A stretch of 60,227 nt of DNA, the filler included, from Hausera hauseri (taxonomy: Eukaryota): NCBI GenBank assembly GCA_046269625.1. It is 10 parts of 10 records of this genome, joined end to end, with 100 filler letters (N's around TTAATTAATTAA, not from the genome) between each part and the next. Parts side by side here need not be neighbours in the genome. Positions count along the whole stretch, not along the records: positions 49,689 to 55,338 come from JBJURY010213633.1; 9 more parts are not named here. One strand, given 5' to 3'. Shown piece after piece: positions 10,820 to 60,227 of the stretch. Positions within the stretch are counted from its first letter, which is position 1. The number at the start of each line of letters is the position of its first letter. A model generated the notes under the pieces. It worked only from the letters and a program-made list of their open reading frames with translations, did no database searches and was not told where the DNA came from. The position numbers and the translations under genes are program-made.

Positions 10820-10891
10820 TCCTCGGTAGTATAGTGGTAAGTATCTCCGCCTGTCACGCGGGAGACTGGGGTTCGATTCCCCGCCGGTTAG
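10820..10891 (+). tRNA. tRNA-Asp(GTC), variant/probable pseudogene
   Basis: Four substitutions versus the 12594 copy; 3' acceptor strand CCGGTTA gives two mismatches with TCCTCGG; T-run downstream. Confidence 0.85.
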
Positions 10892-11227
10892 GAATTGTTT
10901 TTCCCCAATATTTGTTGGTAATGTAATTGACATTGCAATTCTTGAGCTGCGATTACATAAAATATGCAACAATAAAAGCAATGTTCACTTTAACATTGAA
11001 GCAAACTCTTGAAAGAAACATCCTGTTTATTACCATGTACACAAACGGACCACAATCACCTGATGACATGGCTAGTTGAGATTGACTGAGAAGTTCAATA
11101 ATTGTACACAGAATACTTGAAAATAATATTAGAGGATGGCATCTTTTAAAAATAAAATATACAGCTATAAAATGTATTTTTACTTTAAAATTAAAGCAAA
11201 CACTTAAGAGAAACATCCCATTTATTA

Positions 11228-14575: not shown

Positions 14576-14623
14576 ACTTTCGCCACGTGCTCCGGCTTCA
14601 GCGACCTTCTTTTCTTTTAGTTT

Positions 14624-17600: not shown

Positions 17601-17897
17601 AGATGGTCTTCTATGTCCCCCTTTGTAAATATCAGGACATCGTCGATATAAGCGAGCGCGTAGTCTTGCATTCCCTCTAACACGATGTTCATTAGGGACA
17701 TATAAGTAGCGGGTGAGCCCTTCAACCCGAACGGCATCACGTTCCACGTGTATAGTCCTGTGTGGGTACAGAAAGCGCTCTTCATCTTCGCTTCTGGCGA
17801 CATTGGGCGTTGTGAAGTAAGTCGTGCCGTCTAACATTCCTAGAATATCATCGATTAACGGCATGGGGTAGCTTACGTTAGCCGTAATGGCGTTCAA
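14624..17897 (-). CDS. pol: Gypsy pol: RT - RNase H - integrase plus ~300-aa acidic/charged C-terminal extension (RT disrupted at 5' end)
   Basis: MPFGL, YIDD, YTDAS/EKEA/TDHK/ADLLS, HHCC (HDNLGH..CEVC), SLDL/VTDNG/NERQH DDE triad. Confidence 0.97.
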
Positions 17898-17908
17898 GGC
17901 CCGGTAAT

Positions 17909-19720: not shown

Positions 19721-19803
19721 CTGTACTGGTTTAACACTTTCGTTTCTAGTTCTCCTTGTATTGTTCTGGTGGGCCCTTACTGTTCTCCTGCCCTGCGTGA
19801 GCC

Positions 19804-20971
19804 CTAGTGCTGAGCAGGACTTCCGTTTCCCTGCTGTGTCTGACTTCCAGTATCTCTTCGCTCGTTTGTATCACTTGACCTACAGACTCTGGCAAAGTGT
19901 CCTTCTTTGCCGTGCTTGTAGCATAGTCTACTATTCTCTGTCTTCTGTCTAGGATTGTTTGGTTTTGTTGCTTTGTTTCTGCATTCTCTTGTCATGTGTC
20001 GAACCTTTCCGCATCTATAACACTGCATTCTCTTTTCGACTTCGTGAACTGCCTTTCTGTCTTCGAACCATCTTTATCTATGTTGTTCATGTTCATGTGG
20101 CATTCTTTGCCGTCTGGGACTTCCATTTGTTCTTCACTTCTATCATCGTATTTCTCTCTACCCAGTCTCATGTTAAATCTCTTACTGGTTTTCTTCTTCG
20201 AGGGCTGTTTGTATGGCCGCTTGAATTGTCTTAGGCTTATCTTTCATTAACTTGATTTTAATTATCGTGTTTCACAACCCGTCCGTGAAGATTGATATCA
20301 ATATCTGTCCTATTTCTTCTGTCATTATGGTTTGGCCTGCGTATGCTTCCTCGGCCAAGTTCAACATCCTGTCTCCATAAAGTTGAACTGACTCTTCCTT
20401 TTCCTGTTTGATTTTCCATAGTGCAGCAATAGTATATTGCATGTCACATACTTCGGCGCACCTATTTGCTAATGTCTTTTTAAAATCTTCCCATGTCTCA
20501 TCTGGGTGCGAACTGAACCTTCTTCTGATGAAATCGTTTGCTAGCGCATCTGAAGTCATGTAAGCTAGCTCTTTCTTTTCTTCTTCAGTAGCCTTAACAA
20601 ATATGAGTACTTCTCAATCTGTGAGATCCAGGTCTTGAATGCCTTGGTTTCCTTTCCACTAAATGTTTGAACAAATGTTCTTATGTTCTGGTGTCTACTG
20701 TTCATGTCCACTTTAGTCACCATTGTTTCTATTTTATCCAACGCCTTCCTGACCTTTCTTCTTTTCCCAAACCTGACTTTATAGGATGAAGTTTCCCTTT
20801 CTTGACTGGGGTCTGACCTCCAATCTGTAAATGCTCTACCATTTTTCTCATGTCTTCATATGTTCCTTCATGGCACCATATTCTGCCATCATAGTATCTA
20901 GTTGTTGCGGTATGGCAACAATTCTTTCTGCCACGGCAGGAGGTGGAGATTCCATTTTGTCTTCGATACAA
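19804..20971 (-). pseudogene. gag: Gypsy gag (capsid + two CCHC zinc knuckles), fragmented
   Basis: TWEDFKKTL, MHR-like IKQEKEESVQLYGDRM, IFTDGL; CYRCGKVRHMTREC and CYKHGKEGHFARVC. Confidence 0.9.
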
Positions 20972-21586: not shown

Positions 21587-22512
21587 TAAGGACAAAACCC
21601 GAAGAGACAGTTAAAGTAAAAGTATCGTCGGACAGCATGGACGAGAAAGAACACTAGTTTACTACGCGCTACTCCGTAAGGAACGTGGTACAGTGGCTAA
21701 TGAGTAATGGTTACGCAAACCAACTGAACTATAGACCCTACTTTAGAGGTAGAATATTGGACGAACTGGAGAAATAAATAGACGTCGGAATTATCCCAGG
21801 CGAAACGAATCGAATAATAGTAACGGTCGCCACAGAGGAGACAAAAGAAGAGGCCACAAGGAAAGCTAAAACAGATCAGTGTGTAGGATGAATCATGGGA
21901 GTTCGAGATGCAGCAATGTACTTTGAATATTTGCAAACGGACGAAGAAAAAGAACAATATGATAAGAATTTAGTAGCACCCGACGAGACCGCATCGGTTA
22001 TAGCGAAACAGAAGCGTTCCGTTGGTAGACCGCACAAAACACGAGAAGAAATTGATTATAATGGAGACTTAATTAGAGAATTGAAGCAAATGTCCATATC
22101 AACCTTTAGTGCAGAAAACGAAGAACTGAATGAACTTATGAAAAATTTGATACGCATAGTAAATCATTCCAGTATCTGTGGCGAAATATTAAATGAAAAA
22201 GAGAAATCTATATACAATGCAGCCAAAACAATGAGAGATTTCCTATGTAAATTATCGAGAAGCACCTTAAGTGATGAATCAGTGATCGAAAAGATTATGG
22301 TAGACAACACCATAGAAGAGTTAAGGAAAGTGCTATTGTATTTGGCCATAAAAACAAATCCAACTCGAGAAAATTAATTTAATAAAGCCACTAGTTTAGC
22401 GCGGAAAGCTGGCAGAAAATTACCCCGAGAAGTAAACTGGTATAAGTTATTCGAAAAAGAAGAACATCAGAATAAGGCCCCCTTTAGCAATAGTAATAGT
22501 ATATTCGAAGAC
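21587..22512 (+). pseudogene. C-terminal part of ORF1 (unknown domain preceding the glycoprotein)
   Basis: Homologous to 45239-46050 (GVRDAA.YFEYL, KQKR.VGRP.KT, NTIEELRKVLLY.A.KT); same frame as 22513 ORF; the TAA at 22375 is GAA in copy B. Confidence 0.75.
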
Positions 22513-24609
22513 ATGTTACGAAATTTAACTGGGAATAATTGGGGAAATGAATCAAACTGGCTAATTAATTTCCTAACTGTGATGATGTTAATAAGACACA
22601 TGGGAGCGGTTACAATATGTGACTGTGACAAATTCAGATTTTGCCAAAGATATTCATTGATGGATTTGGAAATGTGCAAGGATGCGAGACCACATAAATT
22701 AGAAACAAAAGAAAAAAGATACTTACTATATAAGCAACGGGCGTTAGTTTCATTGGATGGGATAGAATGCATGTTACGACGATCTCGCAGTATTTTCTAT
22801 TGTGGATTAATACACGGACATTCATCCATAATCAAGCCGACGACCCCACTAATTCCAATGAACTTAGAACGCCAGCATTGTAAGCAGGCTAGAGAGACAG
22901 GCAGGCTGAAGTGGGACGGCATTGAATTAGAAATGCAGCAAGGGAAAATAATCAGAGCATACAAAGTAGCGGCAGGAAGATAAGATATGCATACGGGTCG
23001 CTGTAACGGCGCAGAATACGATACTGGAAAAGGATAAGATTAGACATAGTGGTTGTGGATTTCTACGAAACCGAGATGCGCCCACAAAAAGTTATGTTTT
23101 ATAGCGTTACTAAGCTCTATACGGAAAACCAAAAGTGCCACATCCAAGACTGCACCTGTGTTTTTAGAAGTTCGGTAGTATTTTGGGAATCTCCAGCTAA
23201 GACCGATTGCAATTTTAACAAAATTAATGAACTTAAGTTTAACGAGACGACAGGAAAACGCTACGTAAGTAATACGGATACAAACTCAAAAACACGAGAA
23301 GATGTAGCGGAACAGCCTACACGTACCATATTAAAATCCGATACTCACGGGTTAAATTTTGTGAAGAAAGATGTACACACAAAGTGTGATGTAGTAATGT
23401 ACGCCACCAATTATGAAGCATTCTTTGTAGCTGAAACCGAAATAAATACCAGAACGTTCAAGCTTGAGACTCAAGATATTCGAATTGAAGATTATTTGTA
23501 AAATATAGACGATCATTTCTACTACAAGGGACAGGCCGGAATTGCTGAGTTATACTATAAGATGATAACGAACGACTGCAAACTAGACTTAGAAGTCATG
23601 AGAACCAAACTGGCCTTAATATATGCTAATTCCAAGTTAGCGTCACGAATAATTCCGATGAAAGAAGGCGTTTTTGGACAAGTGACCGGAGAAGTTCTGC
23701 TGACTTCCGAATGCGAGAAGGATGTACCTATTAATGTAGAAGAGAAAAGGTGCATTTAAGAACTTCCAGTGATATATAAGGACATACGGAGATTAGTGAT
23801 GTCGATTACGAGAGTATTACTGGCAAACTCTACCTAACCGACGATTCTGAAAGATTGTAAGACCAGTCTGGGAGAACCAATGTTTAGACGTAGCGAAACC
23901 GATTGGGTAAGCTTACCAAACGGTGGTATAATTACGCCGCCCACCAAGTTAACTGGAACGAACTTAATAAAAGGAATAACCGATAATAAGTTTCAAGATA
24001 CAGCAGCAAAAGGCATTTACCGACCGAAAGAAGTGGAGGCATTTAGACAATTTCTCGCTTTCCCACTCCAGCGCACACATGAACTAAACAGAGCTATGCA
24101 TACAATATTGGAGGATTCACGCTATCAAGCGAAATAGGAATCGTTACTTGGCGTTAACTAATATCAAAAAGTCACTACTGGAATACTGTATAAAATTTGC
24201 GGAAGATTTCTGATATTCGGACAAGCCGCATCAGGATTCCTAGCAATTTACTTCTTAATTCAACTGGTTAAAGCGATAATTCAAGCGGTCATAAATGGAT
24301 ACGAGATCTACACTCTAACAGGATTCTCATGTAAAATTTTAACAGCTGTTATCACACCTTTCGGTAAATTCTTAAAAGCGGATGTGGAACGACATGTTGG
24401 CTATCATAATCGAAAACGTAAAAAGAAACATGTTGTTACAAAAGTAAATTCATATATATATCAAGGCACGAAGAGATAACTCGGATGATGACGAACCTAA
24501 GGGAGGAGAAGCCGTCTTAAAGACAAATAGACACAAAAACTATTCCGTTATAAAACCACCAGTACCAATATTATCGCCAAGTGCACCTACATATGAAGAC
24601 TGTGAGTAA
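22513..24609 (+). pseudogene. env: Chuvirus/jingchuvirus-like glycoprotein (env), copy A, several stops
   Basis: Signal WLINFLTVMMLIRHMGA; CDC..YSLMDLEMC; IEC..FYCG..HSS; AAG..GRCNG; GQVTGEV..C..RCI.ELPV; TRVL; KGIY..FLAFP; TM region FLIFGQAASGFLAIYFLIQLVK..INGYEIYTLTGFS. Pattern recalled from chuviral glycoproteins. Confidence 0.85.
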
Positions 24610-24615
24610 CAATCT

Positions 24616-27600
24616 ATGAGCTCATATCAAACGGATATCTATAGAAAACCGTTCAGCCTGGAAGATCCTTATAAGGGAACAAAACACTACGGAATATTGC
24701 GTAAGGCACACGAAACGAAAAGAACAATTGTCCCATATCGTCTCTCTGCAGTCGACGACCATGGAATAATTTATTCACCCAGAATTCCTAGGCCGAACGA
24801 AATACGATCAACATTCTCAAGAGACCATGAGATGCAGAATTTCAGGGACCCAGAAATACAGCCACCAGTTAGAAGTCACGAAACGGAAAACGTCAATTGT
24901 ACGAACAATAAACTGTACCTAAATGAAGAGCTAAGACAGTTAATCGACCAGCCAGTTGCGACCACTGAAGTTAGAATTAACGGCTATAAGGTCTCGACGA
25001 TTCCACACCCAAAGATAGCGCCAAATTGCTATGATACGGTAATCGAAGGTAAACCCTTCGCAAAAATTCACTTAGAAGATTGGGAAGTTTACGCATTGAT
25101 AGAGACAGGATCCGAGATATCACTGATGAAGCATGACTCAATACCACAGTCCCTACGAAAACAAGTATATCCACTTCCCACAACAGACCCAGGGAGCATC
25201 GGGGCTTTTGGACAGTTGTCGAAAAGAAAATTCCGATGGAAGCCAGAAATGAGCATAATGGGACAATCTTTTCACCACGAATTCTCAGTAATTGCACAAT
25301 TAACGGATGATGTGGTATTAAGGTGCGATTTATTGAGACAACTGCCGAATATAGCAATAGACGTCCATGCAGTGGAAAAGTAATAGAATTCGGCCCGATA
25401 AAAGGCGTCAAAACCACCAAGGATAGGCAAATTGGAGAAGTATGGATCCCAGTAGATGAGAACGTTCCACTTAGACCCGAGGTATTAATATATGCTCAGA
25501 TACGTCAAGATGACGACCAACCAGTGTATTTCGAACCAGAGGAATCGTTAAATTCAAGCATCGCACTCAGTAACGTATTAACAAGAGTATCGACGGGCCG
25601 TGTACCTATTAGGATAGCTAATAATGTACCAACTCCGATTAAACTGTATGCCAATACCACTTTGGGTAATACATATAGAGTATCGTCAATAACTATTGAA
25701 GAAAAACCTTACAAATGTGCCGAATTTCCACCTCGCGTTGATACTAAATTTTCATCAGAAGCATACTGTCGATTTTACGAATTACTTTCTCATTATAGCT
25801 CAGTCATCGCGAGAGACGACGAAGACATTGGCAGAGCCAAAGCCTTGAGACTAACAATTCCAGTTAAGAAAAAGCCTGGCTTCAATGATGAAATAGAATT
25901 AGAGGATCAAAAGATGCCGAAATGGTATCCCCTCCGCACTCATTAAGGCCGGATATAACGAAAGAAGTCGAACGAATGCTAAAGGCCGACATAATCAGAC
26001 CAAACTATAGATCTTGGTATTCACCTATTTCATGGTCAAGAAAAAAGGTACCACAAAGCATCGAATTTTGTATTGATTACCGAGCATTAAACACACTTAT
26101 GATGAAAAATTCTTTCACATTTTCATCAGTAAAAGAAGCCCTAGATAGACTTTCCGGAGCTAAATGGTTTACCACGCTCAATCTGCAATCCGGATATTGG
26201 CAAGTAGAAATAGAAGAAGAAGATCGTTATAAAACTGCGTTTAAAACACACAACGATGCATACGAATTTAATGTCATGCCATTAGGGGATAACTACTGGA
26301 CCAGCCATTTGTACTCGAATGAAGAACAAGATGCTAATGGGTCTGGAACATGCGTTCGCGTATCTGGACGACGTAATGAATGCATCAAAGACAGAAGAAG
26401 AACATTTAAGGGATATTGAGGACACGCTCATGAGAGTGGAGCAAGCCGGATTGAAATTAAACCACAATAAATGTAAATGGGCTCAAAACGCTGTATCTTA
26501 TCTCGGACATATAGTTGGAGAAGGAGGATCGAAACCTGATAAATCTTTGTTAAGTAAGATATCAGATTCTATGGAGCCCCAGAATCAAAAAGAGTTGCGA
26601 CACTGGTTAGGTTTATGTGGATATTACGCCACTTAATTACCGGATAATTCAAAAAGAAATGCGTCTTTGTATCGTTTACTTAAAAAGGGAATTAAATGGA
26701 AATGGACGAACGTAGAACAAAAAGCTTTCGACGAAATGAAGAAAATCTTAACTAGCGAACCCGTTTTAAGATACCCTGATTTTAACCTTCTGTTTATAAT
26801 TAAAACGGGTGCTAGTGAAGAGTCATTGGATATGATTTAGCACAAAAACGTGAGGATAAAGAACTAGAACACCCAATCGCCTATGGAGGACGATCACTAA
26901 AGAAGGCTGAAAAGAATTATTCGGTCACGGAATTAGAAACGTTAGCTTTAAAAGACAGAAGATTATAATTGTTACGAATCACAAAGTAGTTACAACTTAA
27001 AAAGGTAGAGCAAATAACCCAACGTGTAAGTTCAACCGATGGATCGAAGAGATCTCACGGTATAACATCGAATTTCAATACAAACCCGGAAGCAAACATG
27101 TCGATGCCGATGCACTATAAAGGCTTAAAACTAAAACGGGCGCAATCACTGTGATGAGAAAGTCTCGGCTCGAAGAACTAGTGGACAGACAACGAGCTCT
27201 AACATTGGATAAAACAATAAAAATTTCTGCTGAACAAAAGAAGGACAACGTTATACAACAAATCATTGAGTTTGTCGAAAATGAAACAATACCAAAGGGC
27301 CACCAATTGCGGAAACATGTACGCAGACATGGTCATAAATACTGCATAACGGGCAACACAAGCCATGAAAATGTACTGTATTATGAGCGGAAAGGCCGGA
27401 AGTTGGTAGTCATACCAAAAGGATTACGCACAGGAATACTAATGGCCGAACATGATTCATACTTAGCCTGACACATGTCATGGAAGAAGACATTAGAAAG
27501 AATATTAAATAAATATTACTGGTCGAACGTATACATCGATGTGAAGAATTGGGTAAGTGCTTGCGAAGTATACGCAACCAAACAAAAAAAGTGAAAAACT

Positions 27601-28560
27601 ACGTTCTCGAACATAAACCAATAAGCGTGCCGGACAGACCGATGCAAGCGATGTCCATGGATATTGTAGGACCGTTACCTATAACTCATAAGAATAATAA
27701 ATACATTCTGACATGTATAGATCGCTTATCTCATTTCGTCGAGCTTGTGTCATTAGTGGACCAAAAAGCTGAGATATTGGCTAAGGCCGTAGTAAGGAAA
27801 ATTATCTGCTGATTCGGACCTCCCGAACAAATTCTGACAGACCGAGGAAGAAACATTACGTGTGAACTATTAAAAAAATTACTAAAATATTTGAAATTGA
27901 AAGATTAACCACAACAGCTTACCACCCGCAATGTAACGGAATGGTCGAACGAACGAATGCAACAGTTATATGGATCCTATCAACAGTATTTGCGAAAGGC
28001 CAGAAGGATTGGGATGAATTTTTCGAAGACACGTAATTTGCCATAAACACTACATCACACACTGCAACAGGATTTACCCCATTTTTATGATGTATGGCAG
28101 AGGCGGTACTACGCACAGACTTAGGAATGATACCATATACAGTAAAAGCGGACGATTCAGAGCAAAATTTTGTTGAAGTATTACAGACGAAGCTACAAAA
28201 GTGTTTGGAAATAGCCAAAGAATTGTCCAAAAAATATCAAGAACAATTTAAAAGGCAAGACAATAAGAAGGCTAAACCACATGATCTAGAGCAAGGAAAT
28301 TGGGTTTATGTACATTACCCAGTCGCAAAGAAAGGCACATCTCTGAAATTCACTCGAACAGGCAGAGAACCTTACGAAGTTATCAGAACCACACCAACTA
28401 CAGTCTATATTAATAAAAATGGCAAAGAGGAGGTCATATCAATACAAAGAGTAGTTAAAACGGAAATAAGACCGAATAAACGCTATAACCTGCACCCAAA
28501 CAAAGAAAATCCAAGTCAAACCAAGAAGGAAAAGAAAACGTCATCGATAGTAACCAGACC
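24616..28560 (+). pseudogene. pol: Gypsy-type pol (PR-RT-RH-IN), copy A, multiple stops/frameshifts
   Basis: ALIETGSEISL, FCIDYRALN, WFTTLNLQSGYWQV, YLDD, WLGLCGYY, HPIAY..YSVTELE, MSMDIVGPLP, ILTDRG, YHPQCNGMVERTN. Confidence 0.95.
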
Positions 28561-29931
28561 GATATATTATGCACAAATAATTCTTGCACTATCGCTAATC
28601 GCTTCATATGTGCTAAAGGCAAAGACACAATGGACAATGGATTTAGTAGAAGTTATCCACGGAGTTATGAAATATTTCCCAATTGAAAAAGAATGACATG
28701 CGGAAAGACGCAAAGATATACAGAATTTACAGTCGCTCAGAGTCTACGATATGAATTGGATCAAGCCTTGCGCCTGGTTCAAGGCAAGTGAATCTGTTAA
28801 GAACCACGCAAAATTTCAAATAATATTTGTGGATCAAACTAGTTCTGCGATGAAGACATGTGATTTTCCGTATGGCGCCTATCAGAGATGTTGCGATTTA
28901 GATTTCGGGCGAACCTATAAATACAAATTTCAAATGTTCTATTATAATCTACCCGGAGCCCAGGCCTATATAATTACCGAATTTGAAATAAGAATGCCTC
29001 AACGCAACGACACAAACCAAGCCAGAACGGACGATATAGTCCGAGATGCCTATCCATTTAAGAGAATCCTAGATTATAACATTATTGGTATCTCTAAAGA
29101 TTTTAAAAACCAATGTATTCGAATTAAGACCAAAATAGAATTGCTGAGAGGCAGACAAATTTCCATCCGATTCATAGCGATACGGAAATCAAACACTCCT
29201 CTGAAATACTGTTATATTGCGCGAGGACAGCAAAATTCGTGCTGCAGAATACCCTTCAAACATGAATACCAATTGCAATTCGATCTGTACAATACTTACT
29301 CAAACGAACCGAGTACCTATCTAAGAGGATACCGTCCAAAGGTCGGAATATGAAAGATTTCCTTTCCAACAACTACGAGAAAACCGTCTACCATTCCAAA
29401 TGCGACTCGTACCACTTATATTCTCCTTTCGAGAAAAATGTCCGAGAGAGCTGAAAAACATGCTTGTTAGAATTTTGGTACGGCATAACAGAATTGTATT
29501 TTATGTTGAGGAAACAGTGGATTACGAAATTAAAATCGAATGTCGCACCTTTATATACCAACCAAATTGTAATCTTAAGGAGGAATAGTCGGGAAATCGA
29601 ATGGAAATCCCTACGATCACAAAATGATATAATGCAAATGACTGAAGATGGTAAAAGACAGAAAACTCTTACAGTACTAAACCTTAACAATGAAGTTCAC
29701 GTAATGCAATATAAAGATACTAGCACCCAACATGCAATTACTACGGAACTTTCTATTGAATCTAATAACTTACCGATAATATCTATATTCAGTTTGTCTA
29801 TTTTCTTTCTTATCATATTAACAGCGACGATTTTCTTACTTTCCAAAAAACGTAATATTCGACGTCAAAATCAACAGAGAGGTAAACGGGTAAAAGGGAA
29901 CCAAGGCGGACTTTATGATAGCATAATCTGA
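28561..29931 (+). pseudogene. Putative type I membrane protein in frame with integrase C-terminus
   Basis: Hydrophobic IILALSLIASYVL, Cys-containing region (28751-29353, same frame after one TGA), then after a frameshift IISIFSLSIFFLIILTATIFLL followed by basic SKKRNIRR. Confidence 0.55.
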
Positions 29932-30033
29932 CAATTACAGATTGGGTTACTCTATCATCAGACGGAGAAAATGTTTTTGTTTCAAAACGATGATCTATCT
30001 TAGGATTGACCTTTATTTTTTTAGCAGAGTAAG

Positions 30034-31758
30034 TATGGCCAAAAAAGCTAGGAATCCAGCACACAGTCCTAGATACGACATCGATGACTTCCTACAGCAG
30101 AATGTGGATGTTCTTAAGCCTCCTTCCAAAAGCTTATATCGTCAAATCAGAGAAAGCCCGAAAAACCAAACTTATGTAGAAATCGATCGAGAGAGCAAAA
30201 TACCAAATGGATTGAAATGTGGCTTAGAGGAAAATCGATTAATCCGATTATATGCAATGCGAAGCTCAAGGGATGCACGAGCATACCTATTGATAGATAT
30301 GATCCCATATGAACCGACACATCAGTAAATGTACATATATGTCGCTGATGGAGAAATACGGCACAGGATCGTAGGACAATCCTGGAGTACTCAAAGTGGT
30401 CAACAATGGAAAATTAGCACATATGAGCTATGTTGCTCTAGCCTCATGGATTACGCTTTGGAGTTCAGAATCGCAGAGCTTCCAACCAAACTTATGTTTA
30501 AATTAACCCCACGAACAGAGGTGATGAGGCCACTACCACCTATACTGTGTATACAAAAGCCCTCAGAGGATGAGATAGAACGAAACGGAGAATCCTTCAG
30601 ACTACTTACAGATGGCAGGAATACTCGAATTCAAGCTGTAAACTATGGAGAAAAGGATGATGGATGGTACACCTCAATCGAAGTCTCTATCCGAAATATA
30701 AATGGAGAAGAGATTATAAACAAAATAATTGCACCTAGAACTAAGGTAAAGGATACATTTCCCGACGTTTCTGGAATTACAAAATTACGACTCGAGGAGG
30801 GTAAAGATATCCAAGAAATTCAAGAAGACATAAGCCATATCTTATATGGATTCATTGTAACCGGATTTAGAGTACACGAGATACTAGAAAGGTTAGGAAT
30901 TCGACAGGAATATATAGCCGGAATTCGTGAATTAAGTCGCAATCCGACAGTCGTAAGTCGAACGGAAAGCATTCTAATGAGAAAAAGAGGATGTCTACTT
31001 CCTCCAGCGTCACGAGAATTCCAATTTAAGATGATATTAGAAGCTATGAATGGTGAACGCTTCCATATCCCTAAACTAATGTCAGCGAGTCAGAGGACGA
31101 AACTCATAAGAGACGTGTATGGTTCTCTACGACGGGAACATGTGTGGAAACCCGGAAACCCTATACAGAATGTGATATCTGATAGTAACCCAAAAATTTT
31201 GATACAGAAATTTCGAAAAGGAATTAGTGAATACCCCATACATAGACAGATTGAACCTCAGGGGCATAATAGCCTCCAAATAACCGTTCAAAACAGCTCG
31301 GTCAAGTTGTCCAAACAGAAGGGATCAAACGGGGATAATCAAGAAACCCTATCGACCAGCCGGAATCGAACCGAATGCGGATCAACCTCTCAAAAAGCAA
31401 CAGAAAGAGTGGAAATCATGGAGTCGAACCTCAGAGAAGACAAAAGACAAAATTCTCCTTCTTCGAAAATAACAGTAGAAAGAAAAAGAAGACCAGTAAC
31501 AACTCTGCCGAACAAATGAAACCGATTGCTAGCAGCCGCACACCGGTTGATAAAGAAGAGACGGAAAATTCCAAGGAGAGACCGAAAATACAAGAAAACG
31601 GAAATTTTAACGAACCGAGAACGCAACCCCTCAGTTATGAACCGCCCAGAACAGAACTTAATGTTCTTCGAAGAAATTGGGAAGAACCGATCCCTATTAT
31701 TGTGGTCAAATTTGGTCAAGTTAAGGAATACACCAGAATGCTCCTAAATGCAAAATAA
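30034..31758 (+). pseudogene. Accessory ORF containing a REX4/ISG20-like DEDDh exonuclease fold (~30626-31120), catalytic residues absent
   Basis: EVSIRNINGEEIINKIIAPRTKVKDTFPDVSGITKLRLEEGKDIQEIQEDISHILYGFIVTGF parallels REX4 RVSIVN..G....D..V.P...V.D..T.VSGI....L..G.....VQ.EV..IL.G.I.VGH; the 29942 and 30329 ORFs are one frame split by a single stop. Confidence 0.7.
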
Positions 31759-37817: not shown

Positions 37818-40145
37818 GTATCTGGTTCGTATGTTCATGACTCTACTCATGGATCTCATCATTTCGGAAAGTCCTGTTGTCAAGACTGACCAGGAAAAAG
37901 CTGAAGAAATAAGTAATTTTGAACTAGTTTCTGTAGTTCTCCGACTGATCCTACATCTTCTAATGTATGAAAATCTATCAGTTGTAAGCATGACCAATCG
38001 GGATGACAACAACTCGACGTCTGCAGATTGTAAATTTCCCTCAGTATCACAACAGTCACTTAGTGAACATTCCGTTGCATATCTAGTACTAAACCTCGTT
38101 CACGGGAAACAACTGCTTTCGTTTTGTTTACTCAATTTGGAGAGACTGTTAATGCACTGGAAAGCAACCGACAAGACTAAGTCACGAGAAACTGATGTTG
38201 GTAGAATGTCACTCAAGGGTGGACGACGCATCAGTGTGGATCACATAGCACAGTCATGTCCATGGGTTCCAGTTGCCGATGTGTACGTTCCCCAGGATTT
38301 GCCTATGGATGTGACGGAAGTGCTTTTGCGATTACCGTACGCCGTGCTGAAGTTGTGCAGGAACATCAGTAAAGGTACATCATCTTTGAAATGTCATCAT
38401 TTTTGATATGTTATCAGTGAGGAAATCTTCGACCGATGGAGCGCAATTTTTTACAGAATTGACCAACTGTATACAAAAGGAGACCAAATGGCATGCTGTA
38501 TTGTGCGAGTTTATTGAGACGTCAGTCAGTGAACCGGTTACCAAGGCTAGTAAAATGGTAAATGTCATGACTCATTGTTAACATTTTCATTCATTCGCCA
38601 TCTTCAGTTACTTAACGCCGTAGTTGGTGCCAAACACTATCGTACAATTCGTGACATTCACATGATCGGCGGTTCTGTCAACAAGATAAAGGCATTGTTG
38701 GGACAACCAGCAGACGTAACGAGCACATCGCACGTACGATTACCGCATCACGAAGTCGTTCGTCTGTTGGATCTCATAAACAGTTGTCTGACAAAGGCTC
38801 GTGAGCGTCCTGATAATTGGAAAGTGTATTGCATTAAATGTCCCGATGTATTGCCATTTCTCTTTGCTCATTGTGTTTCGGCCAATAGGCTCGTTGCAAT
38901 CAAACTACTGTACTTACTTCAATTGGCCGTTCTTGAGCCTGATCAATCAACGAAAACTGTACGTAAAGACCGACCAGCTACAAATGTCACCGAGTGTAAA
39001 ACCGAGACCGAATCGGGTAAGTTAGGGTCGCAGTCGAGCAGACAAGAAGTGAAAATGTGCCGTGCGTTGTCGAGCAAAATTGACGATGACATGTTACTAC
39101 AGTTCCTGAGAATATATCTGTGTGAACACGAGGAAGAAGTTGTTCGATGGCTGGCAGAAGCAGTGTTGGCTAATCTGTATAACCACGGCAAACCTCAGTT
39201 TAGAGTGCGTATGATCACAGCGATGACAAATGTCTGGTCTCACTGGCGAATCTCGTCACAGACCGCTGATTTTATGGGTCACTTGATTGCTAAACATACA
39301 GGCTGGGCTGACCTTTCTCGGTTTTTGGAGACACTTATCAATGGATTGTTACAGACTTGCCAGCAATTTTTGTCCCATCCCAATACACCGTTTTACAGTT
39401 TCTTCCAGAGATTCGTCAGACTATCATCGTGTTTCTTAGAAACGGAACCATGCCCATCATGTGTAGCTATGTCACCGACCGTTGAAATGCGAACATATCG
39501 TTGGGATAGTGAACCCACGGACAACAGGCGAAATCAAGCTCGTGCTGCCACTATCACTGGCATGGGACTTCATACTACAGCTAATACGGTTACTTCGGTT
39601 GCATCTGGACTACCGACAGGAACGTCTGGTGTTCCGTCGGACTATTTGGCACCAAATGTAAGAGCAAGTCCTACAGTGCACGTTTTTAATCTCCGAGCAC
39701 CTTATTCTATCCAATCGGTAACAGTGAAATTCAGTAGCACACGTCGACAGCGACCGCAATGTCACATAAATATGTATTACAGTGATATTAGCACTGTACC
39801 TACCACACAGATGCTTGAACAATCCCATCTCTGGCGGCGCATCCGATCTGTATCCGTATCCAGGGATAACGCCGAAGTGCGAGTCGATTTTCCAGTCTTA
39901 CTGACCGCCGTTTATCTAATATTTGAGTACGATTGTCTATCTGGTGCCGCGGCCGGCACGGAGACTGTGAAATGTCCTCGTTGTCACAGTTCCAGTATTC
40001 AGGGTAATGTTTGTCTCAATTGCAGAGACAACATAAATCAATGCTTTCGATGTCGTGCAATAAACTACGCTGGTATAGATTCGTTTATTTGTGCCAACTG
40101 CAGTAGCTGTCGTTACGGGAAAATAGACTTTTCCATGGTAGCCAG
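37818..40145 (+). CDS. UBR4: UBR4/p600/pushover E3 ligase, three internal exons (37818-38374, 38418-38557, 38608-40145)
   Basis: TEVLLRLPY, WHAVLCEF..KHYRTIRDIH, FLSHPNTPFY..CFLETEPCPSC, CPRC..VCLNCRDNINQCFRCRAINY..FICANCSSCRYGKIDF; GT-AG introns of 43 and 50 bp restore the frame. Confidence 0.9.
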
Positions 40146-40195
40146 GTATGGTTTCTCAATTATTTTGCTAGATGAAATGTTGCTTGCAAAGAATA

Positions 40196-40729
40196 GCACC
40201 TAATTTCTAGTCAGGTTTTTACAAGTTTTACAGGTTCTACCGGTGCAAAAGATTATGATGATTAATAATATGAAAAAATGTTTGCAAACAAATCTAAGAT
40301 TATGTAATATTGGCTTCTAAATATTACGTTTGACACTTTTTCAATTTTCCCTAGCATGCAGAGAAGGTTTGAAATTTCATAAAATTTTTTGCTTCTTTTT
40401 CAACCAATATTTTACTAAGGTTGAATTTCCAGTTTGTCGTTTTTGTTATGAGCAAAATATTAAACGGTTATTCAATAGGTCGACAAACCATCACGAAAAC
40501 ACAATTAGTCAAATATTAATGGTCGAAAAAGTAGCAAAAATTTTGTTAATTCACAAAATTCTTCTGTATGTTAGGGAGAAAATTGAAGAAGTAAGAAATG
40601 ACATATAATCAACAAACACAGCAAAATCTTAGTTTTGTTTGCAAAGGTTTTTCATATTATTAATCATCATAAAATTTTGTACTTGTATAACCTGTAGAAC
40701 TTGTAAAACTCCGACTAGCATTAAGGTGC
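40196..40729. mobile_element. Intronic MITE/foldback with ~110-bp imperfect TIRs
   Basis: 40196-40305 is the reverse complement of ~40620-40729 (ttatgatgattaataatatgaaaaa / tttttcatattattaatcatcataa). Confidence 0.8.
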
Positions 40730-49538: not shown

Positions 49539-49688
49539 AATTTTAGTAGTTGAAGGTAAGTCCTATTCAACACCCAACTACAACAATANNNNNNNNNNNN
49601 NNNNNNNNNNNNNNNNNNNNNNNNNNNNNNNNTTAATTAATTAANNNNNNNNNNNNNNNNNNNNNNNNNNNNNNNNNNNNNNNNNNNN

Positions 49689-49966
49689 ACTGAGGCGTGA
49701 ATGTTATTGATTGGATTTGGTCAATGATAATTCCGAATTGGTTTGCAACAACCCATAATACGACACTTGCCCGATTGAAATATGATGCACTTAAAATCCG
49801 GTTGACACCTGAGGACATACTGCCTCGGATTCCATTGAATAAAAGGTAGTGTGTTAATGTCACACCACTTGCTAAGATGTCCGCGATAGTTGATATTAGC
49901 TAACATTATGGAAACAGTGTTTATATTATAGCTGTTTATATGCGTGCGTAACACGCATATAAACAA
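49689..49966 (-). CDS. TBP-like ORF (partial), divergent from Polinton ATPase
   Basis: LANINYRGHL..DINTL..WNPRQYVLRCQPDFKCIIFQSGKCRIMGC resembles the TBP repeat (NIV..L..L..YNP.RF..R..P...LIF.SGK...TG); IQSITFT in the adjacent frame resembles the start of repeat 2. Confidence 0.6.
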
Positions 49967-50002
49967 ATCATGTAATGAGGAAAGGTTGTATTACTATTAT
50001 TA

Positions 50003-50620
50003 GATCAAACTGCAAAATGATGTCATTTTCCGGATTGTAGGCCCCAGTGGAAGTGTCAAAACACACTTTGTATGTAAACTGTTGCAGAACTACGGTGACA
50101 TGTTCCACTCACCGCGGTACAATCAAATTTACTGGCATCAGGGTGTTGGTGATGTTGGTGAGTCCGATAATTGATGGGTTTGATTAGAACTGCTCAGAGA
50201 GATTACGCAACCGTGAAGTTATTGTCATCGACGATTTATTTCAGGAAGCTGCGAAACAATTCGACTTCAACAACCTCTTCACGAAAATTGCACGACACCG
50301 TGGTGTGACGGTTATTTTCATTACGCAAAACATGTTCCATCAGGGCGGACAGTATCGAACAAGAAATATAAACGTACACTATTTGGTGTTGTACAAACAT
50401 CCCTGTGATCAGACAATCATTGATTATGTTTCACAACAAGCATTTCCTCACAACCGAGCCTACTTAATTAATTCATATCATGATGCTACGACCGAGCCAG
50501 ACGGATACCTGTTCATCGACTTTACATAACAGTGGCACGATGACATGCGTATATGAACAGACATTTTCAATCAAAAAGGTGTTTGTGTCTATAAACAAAT
50601 TCGAAAATCGACGACATGAT
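50003..50620 (+). pseudogene. Polinton A32/FtsK-like packaging ATPase
   Basis: IVGPSGSVKT (Walker A, mutated), VIVIDDL (Walker B), FTKIARHRGVTVIFITQNMF, YHDATTEPDGYLFID. Confidence 0.92.
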
Positions 50621-50836
50621 TATGATAAAAATGAAGAATTTCTGTAAAACAATTATTAACTTAAACCTACCAAGCGGATATCCGGCAAGAAATGTGTACC
50701 AAAACGAACCGCTACAGTCAAGCGATTAATAAATTCTGTGCTTCGAACAACAGCAGCAGCAACTAAACGCAAATCACCGTCACAGTTTTAACGTTTATAA
50801 ACAACTACGTCTCACTAGCATCAATACATCCAAAAA

Positions 50837-51160
50837 ATGGAATTTAAACGTAGTCAGCCGTACTTTATTGCTTTGCTCAAGACACCTACGAGACATAAGC
50901 GAAACATCCCACGATCATTCTGGCAGTTTTTAGAAGACGATTTAATGGAAATTTTGTACAATATTGTTGTGGGTCGCATTGACATTGGTAGTGGCAAGCG
51001 AAATTTACTAAAGTATCGAAAACGACTCATTGGCCTTGCCAACGCCCGTAGTAAACGACTGAAACGGGAGATCATCTACCAGCAATACGGCGGATTCCTT
51101 GGTGCAATTCTGCCGATTGTCACGTCATTACTGGGTGGACTCATTGGTTCTACAGCATAG
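50837..51160 (+). CDS. Polinton small basic core-type protein
   Basis: Basic, ends QQYGGFLGAILPIVTSLLGGLIG (GG protease-site-like motif plus amphipathic helix). Confidence 0.7.
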   Translation: MEFKRSQPYFIALLKTPTRHKRNIPRSFWQFLEDDLMEILYNIVVGRIDIGSGKRNLLKYRKRLIGLANARSKRLKREIIYQQYGGFLGAILPIVTSLLGGLIGSTA

Positions 51161-51271
51161 TATAAACAATGACGGTAAGTATATAATGATTCAGCGATAT
51201 AGGCGCATGGTTTTCATTATTTTGCCCAACTTTACTAAATCTTTTATTTACGTTTCGTTCTAATTGTTGTA

Positions 51272-52328
51272 ATGCAAGCAAAACCGATACCATTGACGAC
51301 AACAATGGGCGACTTGTGGTTCCACCCGCGTCATTCCATCGGATATACTGGCGTCGACAAACTGGCAAAGACTGTCAAACAGACTCAGCAACAGACCCAA
51401 CGTTGGCTCGGGAAACAGTTAGAATATAGCCTAAACAAACCGATAAAAAGGCGGTTTCCAACTCGTGCATACCGTGATGCCTGTTTAAACAACGTATTGC
51501 AAATGGATCTGATTGAAATGATTCCGTACGCCAGCATCAACGATGAGTATCGGTACGTGCTGATATGCGTCGATGAGTTTAGTCGTTTTGCACGTGCAAT
51601 TGCCGTGAAATCTAAATCCGGTAAAGAGATTGTCGACGCTGTTCAGACACTGGTGCAACAATAATAGCCAAAGCATTTACAAACGGATTTGGGTAAAGAA
51701 TTCTACAACACCCACGTTGCAGAGGTCTTGAAACGTTTTGGCGTAAACCACTACTCGGTGTTTTCCCAATACAAGGCTGCACTCGTTGAATGATTTAATT
51801 GAACATTGCGCGGTCGCCTAAAAATTTTTTTACGAAGCAAGGCAACAAGCGTTGGGTAGATGGATTGCCACATATTATTCATGCATACAATCATTCGACA
51901 CATCGTGGAATCAAGGGATTACGGCCGGTTGACGCAGTCGATGATTTGGACATGCGGATTTATTAAAACCGACAAGGACGACCAACTAAACGCCCAAAAT
52001 ATAAAATCGGTGATTATGTACGTATTTCAAAAATAAGTGCTACGCCATTTATTAAGAATTTTAATCAGAATTGAAGCGACGAGGGTTTCCGCATTTTGGC
52101 AATCAACACAAAATAAACACCTGTCATGTACGTTTTATAGGATGAAAACGGCGAGGAAATACGCGGTAAATTTTATGAAGAGGAATTGCAGGTACTGCCC
52201 GAGAAATCCGATGTACATCGTATTCAAGAAATTCTACGTTCATGTGGCAAAGGTTCGAATAAACAATGTCACGTCAAGTCGCACGGATATACTACACCGA
52301 CTTGGATTTTTGCATTGCAGATTGAGTG
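51272..52328 (+). pseudogene. Polinton retroviral-like (c-)integrase with chromodomain-like tail
   Basis: YSLNKPIKRRFPT, QMDLIEM, YVLICVDEFSRFA, LQTDLGKEFYN, AYNHSTH, YKIGDYVRISK, GKFYEEELQ. Confidence 0.93.
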
Positions 52329-53403
52329 ATGAGCATTTATTTGGTACTTGATAGTAACAGATAATTATCACAACATGACGACGACAATGACAATGACAGT
52401 ATCGCTAAACAGTTTACAGTGCACTTCGACCAGACAGTCGATTCGCGTTACGAAGCCTGGGAAGTGGCTTTGACGAAATTCACATTTACATTTTCACCAA
52501 TGTCAATACGTCAGAATAATGGTATTTACTTTATCCGACAAGAACAGAACCTTATTTCAAGTCGTTTTCGGTCAATCTGACACAATTACCGATATACTCT
52601 TCGCAATTATTCAAGAGAAAATTTCTCGGTTTATGCTTATTTTTCAAACTACCGTATGAAACTAATACATCGAAATCCCATGGAAATGCAGTTTAATTCT
52701 ATAGCTGATGCTCAAACATGGGTTTCTCAATCAGTCAATGTACACTCAAAACGTCTACGGCTAAGTGGACATGTTATAACTGGTGAAAAATTGGATTTTT
52801 CATCCGATGTGGAATCCGATATTATAGTAAAGTGAACTAAGTCAGAATCAGTCTTCGGCTCATATATTATACCACACGATTTACTAATAGAAACTAAATT
52901 GGAATTGTGTGAAAGCATCAAGAAAACGGTTACATTAGCCGCAAAGACATGTGAAATAAACGCAGATGGTCATATTTCGATTACACTCCATGACAATGTT
53001 ACCTATTTTGTCTTTTATGAATTATTGGCTCGTATCTAAGTTTTTCACAACGCGTATTCTATCAAAACATTGTTGGACGATCTATTGTTGCCAAATATAA
53101 ACCACAACTGTATGGAGAATTTCACAGAATCAACATTTTAACGGACTTAACGGAATCCGTGTTCGTTGGTGGAGAACGTAAACAACTGCTGGCTACTATG
53201 TTACTGGAAACTGATACGTACAAAACATCATCGGATAAAACTATTCGCGTTATTATGTTCAGACAGTGTACTTATCATTGTCTCACAATATCGTGCACAG
53301 TATTTCTGTGTATATGCTTGATAAATTTTGGGAACCCATTAAATTTCTGTTAGGGTCTACAACACATTTGACGTTACATCTTCTACATCGTCAACGTAAA
53401 TAA
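52329..53403 (+). pseudogene. Polinton minor capsid (penton)-like gene 1
   Basis: MSIYLVLDSN..FTVHF..WEVALTKFTF at start; ESVFVGGERKQLL and THLTLHL at end. Confidence 0.75.
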
Positions 53404-53416
53404 TAAACAAGCTTCG

Positions 53417-53493
<77 letters not shown>
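53417..53493. repeat. (TCA)n microsatellite, ~25 units
   Basis: Perfect trinucleotide run between the two penton genes. Confidence 0.98.
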
Positions 53494-53499
53494 GAGATC

Positions 53500-54564
53500 A
53501 TGAGTATTTGCCTTGTGTTGCCAAGCAACAGTTGTCCTACTACTCGTTCCAACAATTCCTCCAGTGAACACGTTGTAGATTGGAACACTCCTTTGGATTT
53601 ATCTGGACAATGGGAGGTTGCACTGATGGTATTTAACTTTCCCTATGTACTGGTGACATTGAAAGGTAGTATAAAAATAACGTACAACAAGACTTTTTCT
53701 GAAAACAAAGCACATTATTGTCCTCTGACACTTACTAACAATAAAATAACAGTTGGGGAATCGGGCATTTGCACGACCGAAACAGGTTACGGTTCATACG
53801 GCAAAATCGGTGTTTTTATTACAGATGAAAACTTACATTTTCTTGCACATTCTGAATTTACTGCTACCTTTTCGTCCTCTAATATGGCGCAGAAATTTGG
53901 ATTCAGAAATATAGTGTACAAAGGTAAACATATTAAAAGTGAATTAGTAGTTGCTCCAAGATAAAAAGGTGAAATTTACCCATACAACAAAAAGGGTGTC
54001 AGCGTCATACGTATCGATTAAAGACAATATCTATTGCGAATCTGTAGAACAGCTCTGTCAACAGTGTTCTTCTTCAAATAAAAAGTACAAGGCGATATTT
54101 AAAGTTTTCGATTCAGACGTTATGGGTACGTTAAATTTGAACTGGCTAAGGATATTGTCGACATGTCATTGGATAAAGCTTTCTCCATGGTATTGGGTTA
54201 TGAAAAACATCGGTTTGAGGCATCGACGACGGCAGCAATGGCATATGTTGCAACACTCAAACCTAAACTGAAAACGGGACTAAGTCAAATGTACATTTAC
54301 GTGAATGTCACGGAATCGATTTTGGTCAGTGGAGTACGCGTACCGCTACTCCGTGCAATTTATCAGGAAAGCAGCAAGTATACTGCCGGTGACAATGTCA
54401 CTATCAAGATCGATAATGTAATGTACCTACTTGTGGCATCTACATATATAAACAATGTTGAAGTAACTATTCGGTGTGACGCGGGCTGCCTTATCGAATT
54501 TCCGTACGGTACAACAACCAGTCTAACTCTTCATTTCCGTCAAATCCAACAACAACATGATTGA
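53500..54564 (+). pseudogene. Polinton minor capsid (penton)-like gene 2
   Basis: MSICLVLPSNS..LDLSGQWEVAL..FP; MYIYVNVTESILVSGVRVPLLR; TSLTLHFR. Confidence 0.85.
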
Positions 54565-54908
54565 TTCCGAAATCGTTTTCATTTACAGTAAACCGCAGCA
54601 GGGCGGGGAACTGCCGTATTTTGTTGGTAAACAGTGTGGCTCAGAATAGTTGCGTACATTGGTACATTTAGCATTTCCTGTGTTGAAGGATATTGGAGCC
54701 GTTGCAGCACAGGACGTACTATATGAAAACAAATCGATTTACCATCACTGAAGGAAATGCCTTGTCAGAAATAAAAAGGCGCTGCACCGGGAGTCATTGA
54801 ATCGGTTAAAAAACAATTAGCTGGCAACGGCTTCAGGAGGAAACGCTGTAGAGCATCATCGACCTCATGAATTATAAACAAACGTCGTCGTCATACGATT
54901 TTCGATTG
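54558..54908 (+). pseudogene. Polinton core-type protein (QxGG/QxGxG motifs)
   Basis: YSKPQQGGELPYFVGKQCG..AFPVLK..AAQDVL..QLAGNGFRRKR. Confidence 0.7.
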
Positions 54909-55338
54909 ATTGATAGACAAACGGCATCTGCAAAATCTGAATTGTGTATATTTTACAAAGCGGTGCCACAAGTTGTTATTAACAATGGGGCATTTGAAGA
55001 AATTTACCCCGTTAATTCGGTTTCAACGGACGATAACATTGACATTCAATTCAACATTATGGCATCGGAAAATGAATACCTGGACTTGAGCGATACGCTA
55101 CTCCATGTAATAGTGATTGTTAAAAAGGATTTGTCAACGATTCTCGCTGCAACAGACACTGTCACACCGGCCAATTACCTTTTACTCACACTGTTCCAGG
55201 AGGCCTCACTGACTCTGAACAACGTCAAAATCGAAAGCAACACAAGTCTATACAATATCAAAGCACGGCTCTAAATTACAGTAACGACTCATTTGACGAA
55301 AACCATTGGATACGATGCCACAGCGGCAAACCGTCAGG
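54867..55338 (+). pseudogene. Polinton major capsid protein N-terminus (truncated)
   Basis: AKSELCIF..PQVVI..EEIYP..IQFNI..EYLDLSDTLLHV..PANYLLLTLF. Confidence 0.85.
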
Positions 55339-55439: not shown

Positions 55440-56483
55440 CCATCTGACCACGTTACCTATTACTACACTTGGAATATAACAACCCCTTTCTCTATTCCAT
55501 ATTTTCAATTACACATGTGTTGCCTATGCCAAAAACCTAATAGAATAGCCTACCAATTTAGCTGTTGTAATGCTGAGTACTGTGCCCATTGCTATCAACT
55601 AGAATCCCATCATCGATATTTAATCTGTAGCATATGTTATTTTTGCCCTCAATTCATTTACTCGTATTTTCATCATCCTAGAAGAGCTCTCCTTACTATT
55701 ACTAATACGCCAATTCCTCAAATACTTCCAACAAGATACTTTCGACTAGAACGACAAGCATCAGTTCGAATCGAATTCCCAATTCATAAATTCGACCCTT
55801 CTACAATAACTAGACCACCACCAATTACTTTTCAAACATCTTTACCTCATATTAATGTTATGACTCTTTTACGCCAACTATCTTCAATACCACATCTACG
55901 TTATCACCCCGAGCAAATCACTAGACCATTGCCTGAATTACCAGTACCCGCACTTTCAATAATACCTACACCAACCATCTCCTACAGTCCACCACTGCCA
56001 ATATCATTACAAGAAGATTGGTTTCCTGTCTTCAATAAATGCCCAATCGACCTTATTTCTGACTTAGCCCCTCCTGACTTATGGGCAACACTACAATCTC
56101 TCTACTATGATCAACTCCCTACCTATGAATGTACAATATGCCTTACCGAAAGAATAACAGTGGTTCAATTTCAATGTAACCACAAATTATGTGCAACCTG
56201 TTTTAACAAACTTCGATCCCAATCCCTCAAATCGATCAATCCAGAGGATGCTCTTCAGATGACTTTTCAGAATGGCATTTCATGTCCATATTGACGACAA
56301 CCATCAGTCTATTATCATTTCTCCTATACCTACGACAATCGTACTCAACGATTATGCCACTGGATGAATCCAGTAAATGATGCGACTCTAACGATCAGAC
56401 CAAGAAATCTCAGCTTCATCGATGTTAGTACCCAGAGTGATCCGGAGGACCGAATCCTTTTTCAAAAGGAGGAGCAATGTTAG
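55440..56483 (+). CDS. Double RING-like accessory ORF of an LTR element (5' partial; one internal TGA at 56292)
   Basis: CCLC..CC..YCAHC..CSIC and CTIC..CNHKLCATC..CPY*R; frame open from contig start and again from 56295 to TAG 56481-56483. Confidence 0.75.
56464..56477 (+). promoter_or_regulatory. Polypurine tract
   Basis: aaaaggaggagcaa immediately followed by TGTTA, preceded by gaggac..tttt. Confidence 0.75.
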
Positions 56484-59465: not shown

Positions 59466-60227
59466 TTAGGTCGTGACTGCCGCTCTATAATTTTCACCTG
59501 CTGGCGGTGGCACACTGACCTTTAGACTCATTGTAGGTTGTCTTCGAGTGATCGTATTAAAGTATTGTAAAAATTTAAAAACGTATTTTTCTTCTTCTGA
59601 AATTTGACGTACTTGGTGTATCGTATTATTTTTACTGACGAACAGAAAACACGTTGAAGGATTATCTACGCTGCATGTTACGAGAAGATTGCTGGAACCT
59701 AGGAAATCAGATTTATTGGTATTGTACAGAATGACGTCAAAATAAACTATATCCAAAATACGAAAATAGCTAATTCTGAAAACTGTATGATCATCTATCG
59801 TGATTGACGTCTTAGATTTGTAGAATCCTATTTTTTACCGATTCCTGTAAAAGGTATATGTAATTTAAATGGTAATTTAGACGATGCATTTGACACTTGA
59901 ATGATAGACTTGACAGTTTTATTTATGTAAGGTTCTTTAGGTCGGTAAATCAGGGTTCGCATGTATCTTCGTATTCTAGTAATGTTATATGAGCACGCAT
60001 AAACATATAAAGGTGCTATTGAGAGATAATTAAAATACATGATCCAACCTTTGACTTGGGAAGGCAATGTTCCAAATTTTTGAGCAATATCGTTTGGAAA
60101 TTTATCACACTGACAAATTACTACAGTAGTACAATTTTGTGGAACACATTTACATTTATCATTCAAATTATGTGGTCGTAATAACGTTTTGAGTTGAATA
60201 GTTCGATCCACCTTGTTTTTCACATTT

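Follow-up and report, generated by a model that had tools for sequence, protein, structure and literature searches.

In the accessible part of PMC12529657, KSHV ORF24, a TBP mimic of the beta/gammaherpesvirus type, acts on TATTWAA late promoters; it has additional domains at its N- and C-termini, contacts Pol II directly and depends on five other viral activators. The TBPs of Nucleocytoviricota are two-lobe proteins with a diverged N-lobe signature and a diverged TFIIB site, often found with a viral TFIIB, according to the portion of PMC7221094 at hand, which also assigns TFIIB binding to the C-lobe glutamates of TBP, and the binding of TFIIA, TAF1 and Mot1 to a patch on helix 2 (H2) of the N-lobe.

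For Polintons (Mavericks, adintoviruses), the available text of Starrett 2021 (PMC8502044) carries 'TBP' only as a label in the legend of Fig. 5, for MELD viruses, where a member of the same family may be meant. The label appears in two legends of the Starrett preprint, as far as its accessible text goes; in the published paper, TBP is absent from the section on other adintovirus genes and from the extracted text of Fig. S2, and no promoter box is described in the available parts. TBP, TATA and promoter are not mentioned in the main texts of PMC11161782, 10.1101/2023.08.22.554363, PMC11131425, 10.64898/2026.10.13.758929 and 10.64898/2026.06.19.733378, nor is TBP in that of PMC12220804. Among the matches listed from literature outside subscription journals and Repbase reports, the 8-bp box TATAAACA described below was not found, and none brought Polintons, promoters, late genes and TATA together. 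In the literature covered, and in the parts of it available, the published trace of a Polinton TBP is the figure-legend label alone (Starrett 2021). Because it takes only one small protein and one 8-bp site, an element that encodes its own TBP along with a matching box offers a way to test the timing of Polinton capsid genes and whether virions are made on a schedule of their own.

The window analysed here is a 60,227-nt stretch from Hausera hauseri (GCA_046269625.1), in which nine identical N44-TTAATTAATTAA-N44 linkers (4635-55438) join ten pieces; adjacency across a linker is no evidence of linkage. The element lies on the piece at 49689-55338, which we compared with two related loci, L001 and L002. 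Its features are as follows.

49589..49688, no strand: artificial linker N44-TTAATTAATTAA-N44 joining contig pieces; the left-hand DNA is not shown to be contiguous
49690..49716, minus strand: IQSITFTPQ, the opening of the C-terminal lobe, read in a different frame and truncated where the contig piece stops
49721..49906, minus strand: TBP-like gene, N-terminal lobe, 61 codons and then a premature stop; a broken version of a Polinton TBP of ~150 aa
49918..49925, minus strand: TATAAACA box, lying 19 nt upstream of the TBP ATG
49933..49965, no strand: perfect 14-bp inverted repeat (arms 49933-49946 and 49952-49965, 5-nt spacer)
50004..50601, plus strand: A32-like packaging ATPase, in pieces, 47-52% identical to the intact L002 ATPase
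50590..50597, plus strand: TATAAACA box within the 3' end of the ATPase (YKQ), at the same place in L001 and L002
50796..50803, plus strand: TATAAACA box, 41 nt before ORF107
50837..51160, plus strand: 107-aa ORF (ORF107), homolog of L002 ORF121, putative virion core protein
51161..51168, plus strand: TATAAACA box immediately following the stop of ORF107, at the same place in L002
51272..52326, plus strand: rve integrase with chromodomain, in pieces
52365..53353, plus strand: likely first minor-capsid-like gene, heavily broken, recognised by eye only
53500..54564, plus strand: minor-capsid-like gene, in pieces, named from the position and size of its L002 counterpart
54447: TATAAACA inside the minor-capsid-like gene at 53500..54564
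54560..54721, plus strand: homolog of L002 ORF105, a small protein before MCP
54867..55338, plus strand: 5' part of the double-jelly-roll major capsid gene, truncated by the end of the piece, 41% identical to the L002 MCP
54873: TATAAACA, 42 nt before the homologous part of MCP

The genes run in the order TBP (minus strand), then ATPase, ORF107, integrase, minor-capsid-like genes, ORF105-like gene and MCP (plus strand). All are broken or cut except ORF107, and the piece is cut inside TBP at one end and inside MCP at the other. The rve integrase, the A32-like ATPase and the double-jelly-roll (DJR) major capsid gene identify the element as a Polinton. Its order from ATPase to MCP is shared with L002 (1-12415), a nearly whole, intact element that lacks its left end and is arranged PolB, ORF128, ATPase, ORF121, integrase-chromo, minor capsid, ORF105, MCP, protease, TBP and exonuclease-like gene; its PolB, rve-chromo integrase, A32 ATPase, DJR MCP and protease are those of Polintons/Mavericks/adintoviruses (Starrett 2021, PMC8502044). 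The L002 ATPase matches Pfam Pox_A32 above cut-off, the protease has a Pfam match at E 1e-7, ORF121 has a weak adenovirus pX-like C-terminus (E 0.05), and the modelled MCP is a double jelly roll that matches PBCV-1, iridovirus and virophage MCPs (E 1.7e-17). The L002 PolB has no Pfam PolB match and is named, presumptively, from its sequence motifs. Its homologs in the window lie on other pieces (1241-7023, minus strand; two pieces, broken, 27-43% identity to L002), and a search with the L002 element proteins gave no match to the adenain-like protease in the window. No tblastn match to the L002 minor capsid protein was found for 52365..53353 at E 0.01.

The minus-strand ORF runs from an ATG at 49906 to a stop at 49723-49721 and encodes a 61-aa peptide. 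The earlier note had seen in it a TBP-repeat signature, IF.SGK...G after NI....L..D...L, and both motifs are there (IFQSGKCRIMG and NINYRG...). It had also counted NP.....R..P as part of the signature; the motif is present (NPRQ...R..P), but its NP probably does not correspond to the one in cellular YNPKRF. The P is conserved in 121/121 family rows after a residue that is mostly K or P, and by spacing it probably corresponds to the P of the 'FP' pair. The proposed second repeat in a shifted frame held up: IQSITFTPQ (about 49716-49690) stands where lobe 2 begins in intact relatives, with a weak match to the TBP family profile (2.9 bits). So did the placement of the ORF within about 100 bp of the opposite-strand ATPase, the ATG and the start of the ATPase match at 50004 being 98 bp apart. 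The ORF is real, but the span first given to it, 49689..49966, is too long, because the gene starts at 49906 and 49907-49966 is intergenic promoter.

With its stop and its frame change, this copy is broken; it runs off the end of the piece after lobe 1 and nine codons of lobe 2, leaving the glutamate part of the C-lobe beyond the contig end, and a full protein is impossible from it. Its value is that of a decayed fragment pointing to a family. The 89-aa stop-to-stop frame that contains it matches Pfam TBP below cut-off (E 0.042, 14.1 bits), a PDB sequence search with the 61-aa fragment returned no match, and its Atlas match scores <0.9. The four closest proteins share 48-54% identity with it, and three of them are 147-151 aa long, each with two Pfam TBP stretches (59-66 bits).

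Against a profile of the element family the window peptide scores 70.7 bits, versus 12.5 bits against a cellular TBP profile (the reversed peptide scores 0.8 bits against the family profile). This difference, together with the compact homologs at 48-54% identity whose relatives lie in Polinton loci, led us to reject the reading of the ORF as a host TBP pseudogene beside the element by chance. Such a reading would suit a broken copy at a contig end (the left edge at 49689 is the end of the contig piece, and the element boundary is not visible in it); it is extremely improbable, and the inverted-repeat promoter that the gene has in common with the ATPase also speaks against it.

The family was delimited with two profiles. 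The first, built from 11 relatives, collected 2436 representatives at E<=0.001, 36 of them at 1e-30, with a tail that includes cellular TBPs; the second, built from 42 rows, retained 582 of 3864 candidates at E<=1e-10, some cellular TBPs included. In a quick tree of the 119/154 rows of at least 140 aa, drawn up apart from the window fragment and the 582-protein hits, 94 family rows split from 25 cellular-type rows with SH-aLRT 100. The 25 outside rows are eukaryotic, archaeal-type and other two-repeat sequences, with group labels assigned mostly by eye. A compact subgroup of 58 rows has support of 97; the tree is midpoint-rooted and so says nothing on the donor of the family.

Structural comparison also agrees with the TBP assignment. 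The AF2 model of an intact relative, P0002 (pLDDT 97), matches solved cellular TBPs in Foldseek at E ~1e-9 (best 1.6e-9; TM ~0.7 by query), and every hit listed at E<=0.001 among solved structures is a cellular TBP. Viral TBPs match the model more weakly: those of Nucleocytoviricota (BFVD) at E 9e-9 to 1e-3 with 8-20% identity, and BcRF1/U58 at E ~1.5e-3. The model and the two Pfam TBP stretches support two TBP lobes in one chain, in a saddle fold, in the intact relatives.

Intact copies of the gene occur in L001 and L002 beside the same ATPase/capsid module. In L001, TBP precedes the ATPase by 843 bp on the same strand with one ORF between, and in L002 it follows 4.7 kb downstream of the ATPase, after the protease. 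The head-to-head TBP/ATPase layout, which the earlier note expected to find in other Polintons, is seen in only one of three loci (the window), and pairing is therefore not conserved; we rejected it as a general feature. Among 120 TBP and 120 MCP hits listed, 8/27 TBP hits on contigs >=4 kb pair with one of 47 MCP hits of identical size and source, against 0.075 expected from 400 shifted comparisons, which is indirect evidence of co-location. In sequencing run X1, 44,304 contigs fall on the piece, with the TBP bins covered as the remaining ones are; this depth gives no copy number, and X1 may stem from the source itself or from something closely related to it. The host of the element is likely an animal. 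The profile score, the contexts in L001 and L002, the TBP/MCP pairing and the X1 coverage together identify TBP as a gene of the element, as had been proposed, with the qualification that the window piece, L001 and L002 are mutually related and hence not fully independent.

In a viral contig collection we found no relatives of TBP or MCP; the ATPase gave none with a single query and 13 weak hits with an alignment (E 5e-5 to 7e-4), one of which, L003, was discarded as a phage DnaC-like gene. Phage and plasmid collections contained one haloarchaeal-virus TBP and no MCP. A TBP-less Polinton with which to compare the box was not found in the viral contig, phage or plasmid collections or in the L002 genome, which holds a single copy of the element. 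The L002 record is a soil bacterial MAG, and the element in it is likely a contaminating eukaryotic-virus contig.

The intact family proteins are a bare two-lobe core of ~147 aa (145-151 aa). They resemble cellular TBP (eukaryotic TBP/TRF, archaeal TBP; PF00352) in the two-lobe saddle, the YEPELFP stirrup and three of the four intercalating Phe; unlike it, they have a length of ~147 aa, a shortened N-lobe, new fixed residues, a separate branch and a mobile element as their source. We read residue conservation from the 121 rows that score highest against the family profile, a choice that inflates it. In these rows F40, F101, F117, E99, R46, M48 and N115 are present in 121/121, N6 in 120/121, E97 in 119/121 and S70 in 118/121. 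The Phe kept are F40, F101 and F117; the fourth position, mapped by spacing, is K/P/S/T in 115/121 rows, and the nearby F20 (110/121) might replace it.

The two lobes differ. The C-lobe has normal spacing (47 vs 47-49), both Phe, the YEPELFP stirrup and both TFIIB glutamates, E97 and E99. In the N-lobe, the N-to-F spacing is 37 vs 47 in cellular TBP (~10 aa shorter across helix 1), and the G-to-Q distance in the helix 2 region is ~21 vs 33 aa (~12 aa shorter). Consistent with this, the P0002 model has no helix between strands 44-50 and 63-76, so N-lobe helix 2 is absent, and the family lacks the host-type basic patch on helix 2 for TFIIA, TAF1 and Mot1. The fixed N6, R46, M48, S70 and N115 replace cellular V/I, V, T, N and L, mostly, in the compared cores. 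These five positions presumably face the minor groove, and the L-to-N change at N115 affects what we take to be the site altered in a known altered-specificity TBP mutant. The N-lobe presumably contacts the 3' half of the box.

The box TATAAACA was first spotted by reading L002 upstream of several ATGs and was then tested against dinucleotide shuffles. It occurs 8 times vs 0.57 in the window piece, 3 vs 0.39 in L001 and 7 vs 1.81 in L002, counts reached by 0/100 shuffles in each case. In 40 kb of other window DNA there is no excess (3 vs 3.7 expected), and the window PolB pieces and the last piece contain none. An unbiased scan ranks TATAAACA first of the 158 8-mers that all three loci with a TBP gene have in common (16 vs 1.6 expected). 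Single changes of it are mostly unenriched, among them the canonical TATAAAAA (8 vs 4.2) and TATAAATA (4 vs 2.5), the exception being TATAAACG (4 vs 0.5); TATAAGA is found 0, 0 and 4 times in the three loci. The fourth most enriched shared 7-mer is GACATGT (9 vs 1.6), which resembles a p53 half-site and whose sites are mostly coding.

The consensus of forkhead factors is RYAAAYA, of which ATAAACA is a site, and RYAAAYA is common in the three loci. A host forkhead-factor site unrelated to the TBP gene is nevertheless a highly improbable account of the box, and we rejected it as the main reading on two grounds: TATAAACA requires its first T (counts T 16, A 3, C 0, G 0), with TGTAAACA occurring 0 times and GTAAACA 6 times in the three loci, and the sites are oriented. 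Sixteen TATAAACA sites lie on the module strand and only 2 on the opposite strand, both facing the TBP gene, so that all 18 point to a downstream gene or along the module strand.

This orientation goes with placement at genes. TATAAACA stands on the sense strand before packaging, integrase and capsid genes, and TATAAAC occurs <=130 nt upstream of 8/10 plus-strand L002 genes, as compared with 15% of random windows (P ~9e-6, for a 130-nt window picked after the distances were seen). The L002 genes without TATAAAC upstream are TBP and the exonuclease-like gene, and no TATA-type box is present in the 200 nt before L002 PolB. Box-to-ATG distances range from 17 to 119 nt, and several TATAAACA sites overlap coding sequence. 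The sites recur at homologous places, often in the 3' end of the preceding gene; the box encodes YKQ in ATPase, integrase and ORF105 and is read in another frame in the minor capsid gene. From this recurrence inside coding 3' ends we infer a constraint at the DNA level.

The element TBP could instead bind element DNA for replication or packaging, at terminal repeats or with the ATPase as partner, and lie near the ATPase for that reason. Its position next to or near the ATPase in 2/3 loci (window and L001) fits such a role, which the 4.7 kb between the two genes in L002, the nearly invariant TFIIB stirrup and a box that marks gene starts and not the L002 ends make quite improbable.

The TBP genes themselves have boxes of two kinds. 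In the window, each arm of the inverted repeat carries an outward-facing TATAAACA, 34 nt before the TBP ATG on one side and 46 nt before the ATPase match on the other, and the repeat is predicted from its layout to be a back-to-back TBP/ATPase promoter. The window TBP gene has TATAAACA at -34, which is the inverted-repeat arm, and again at -19. The TBP genes of L001 and L002 have an ordinary TATATA-type box at -35 (TATATAAG and TATATATT).

On the observed fold, family, element context, box enrichment and orientation, and conserved residues, we propose, with a probability of roughly 60%, that the element TBP binds TATAAACA and recruits host TFIIB and Pol II to the late genes while avoiding the regulators of host TBP. 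The C-lobe, which keeps both Phe and the EPE stirrup, is predicted to hold the TATA half of TATAAACA, to bend the DNA there and to bind host TFIIB. The rebuilt N-lobe, shortened at helix 1 and helix 2 and with invariant N6, R46 and M48, would read the AACA half and, lacking these helices, evade control by TFIIA, TAF1 and Mot1. In elements of the L001/L002 type, the TATATA-type box at -35 suggests that TBP would be made early by host TBP; recruitment of host TFIIB and Pol II to packaging, integrase and capsid genes would then act as a late-gene switch. In the window, TBP behind TATAAACA would give positive feedback, and a TBP behind its own box is a poor fit to a clean early-to-late cascade. 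The orientation of the box lends independent support to the earlier suggestion that the TBP serves the capsid module as a transcription factor, its function still being deduced from sequence. A wider version, in which a large Polinton lineage has a private one-protein transcription system, with a minimal TBP that has shed the surfaces for host regulators, is re-tuned to TATAAACA and brings host TFIIB and Pol II to virion genes only, we hold at slightly better than even odds.

The mild rise of canonical TATAAAAA (8 vs 4.2), compared with 16 vs 1.6 for TATAAACA, and the new invariant saddle-face residues (118-121/121 rows), which point to a DNA contact that is kept and altered, bear on a further reading: TATAAACA could be a TATA variant read by host TBP, with the element TBP having another role, such as that of a decoy sequestering TFIIB or obstructing host promoters. 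We consider this unlikely in view of those two observations, while noting what it would accommodate. The family has lost one Phe and the N-lobe helices and retained the TFIIB glutamates, and the window TBP gene sits behind the same box. In 1qn3, wild-type TBP was crystallised on the TATA box of the adenovirus major late promoter in a C(-25) variant, which presumably reads TATAAAC; host TBP is thus able to bind a similar box.

If the element TBP does read TATAAACA, it would resemble KSHV ORF24 as a virus-encoded TBP-like factor proposed to serve a non-standard TATA-like late box with host Pol II, and would differ from it in keeping the TFIIB site; a section heading terms the ORF24 model incompatible with TFIIB binding (available part of PMC12529657). 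The Polinton protein has neither the Pol II-binding N-domain nor the multi-subunit activator complex of herpesvirus vTBP, and no partner of the herpesvirus type was recognised in L002. By analogy it may work like a herpesvirus vTBP, though not as a member of that system. The TBPs of Nucleocytoviricota are often accompanied by a viral RNA polymerase. Among the 11 L002 ORFs scanned with Pfam, in a locus without its left end, no TFIIB or RNA polymerase family was found, so that the giant-virus combination of own TFIIB and RNA polymerase is absent from these ORFs, and the Polinton TBP keeps the glutamates of the TFIIB site that is diverged in the giant-virus proteins (PMC7221094, in the part available).

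Should the proposed mechanism be correct, it would be a parallel to the late-gene TBP mimic of herpesviruses in an unrelated and far smaller virus, and the smallest known viral early-to-late switch, with evidence that these 'transposons' run a timed virus programme. The protein would also be a natural altered-specificity TBP that retains TFIIB binding, useful for the study of TBP-DNA reading and as part of an orthogonal promoter pair.

Several minor observations were made in the same DNA. The stretch 52365-54564 apparently holds two tandem minor-capsid-like genes, as compared with one in L002, each with AATAAACA, one mismatch from TATAAACA, 98-122 nt upstream, and a (CAT)n microsatellite (53406-53504) lies between them. 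In L002, an exonuclease-like ORF (10485-10964) stands behind TATAAATA and a tiny C2H2-finger ORF (3463-3564) precedes PolB, both named by eye. LTR-retrotransposon sequence occupies 14132-20559 (minus strand), in which 14624-19720 has confirmed domains for protease, RT, RNase H and integrase, and also 21895-31758, the latter recognised by eye. Long plus-strand ORFs at 37831-40203, with no Pfam match, have a Cys-rich C-terminus that we take to resemble a UBR4-type E3 ligase exon. The last piece contains an ORF (55515-56294) that carries a RING finger at its C-terminus and is rich in Cys at its N-terminus, and a fragment that matches Pfam HAT_KAT11 above cut-off (59466-59834; E 2e-5); these could be host or viral accessory genes.
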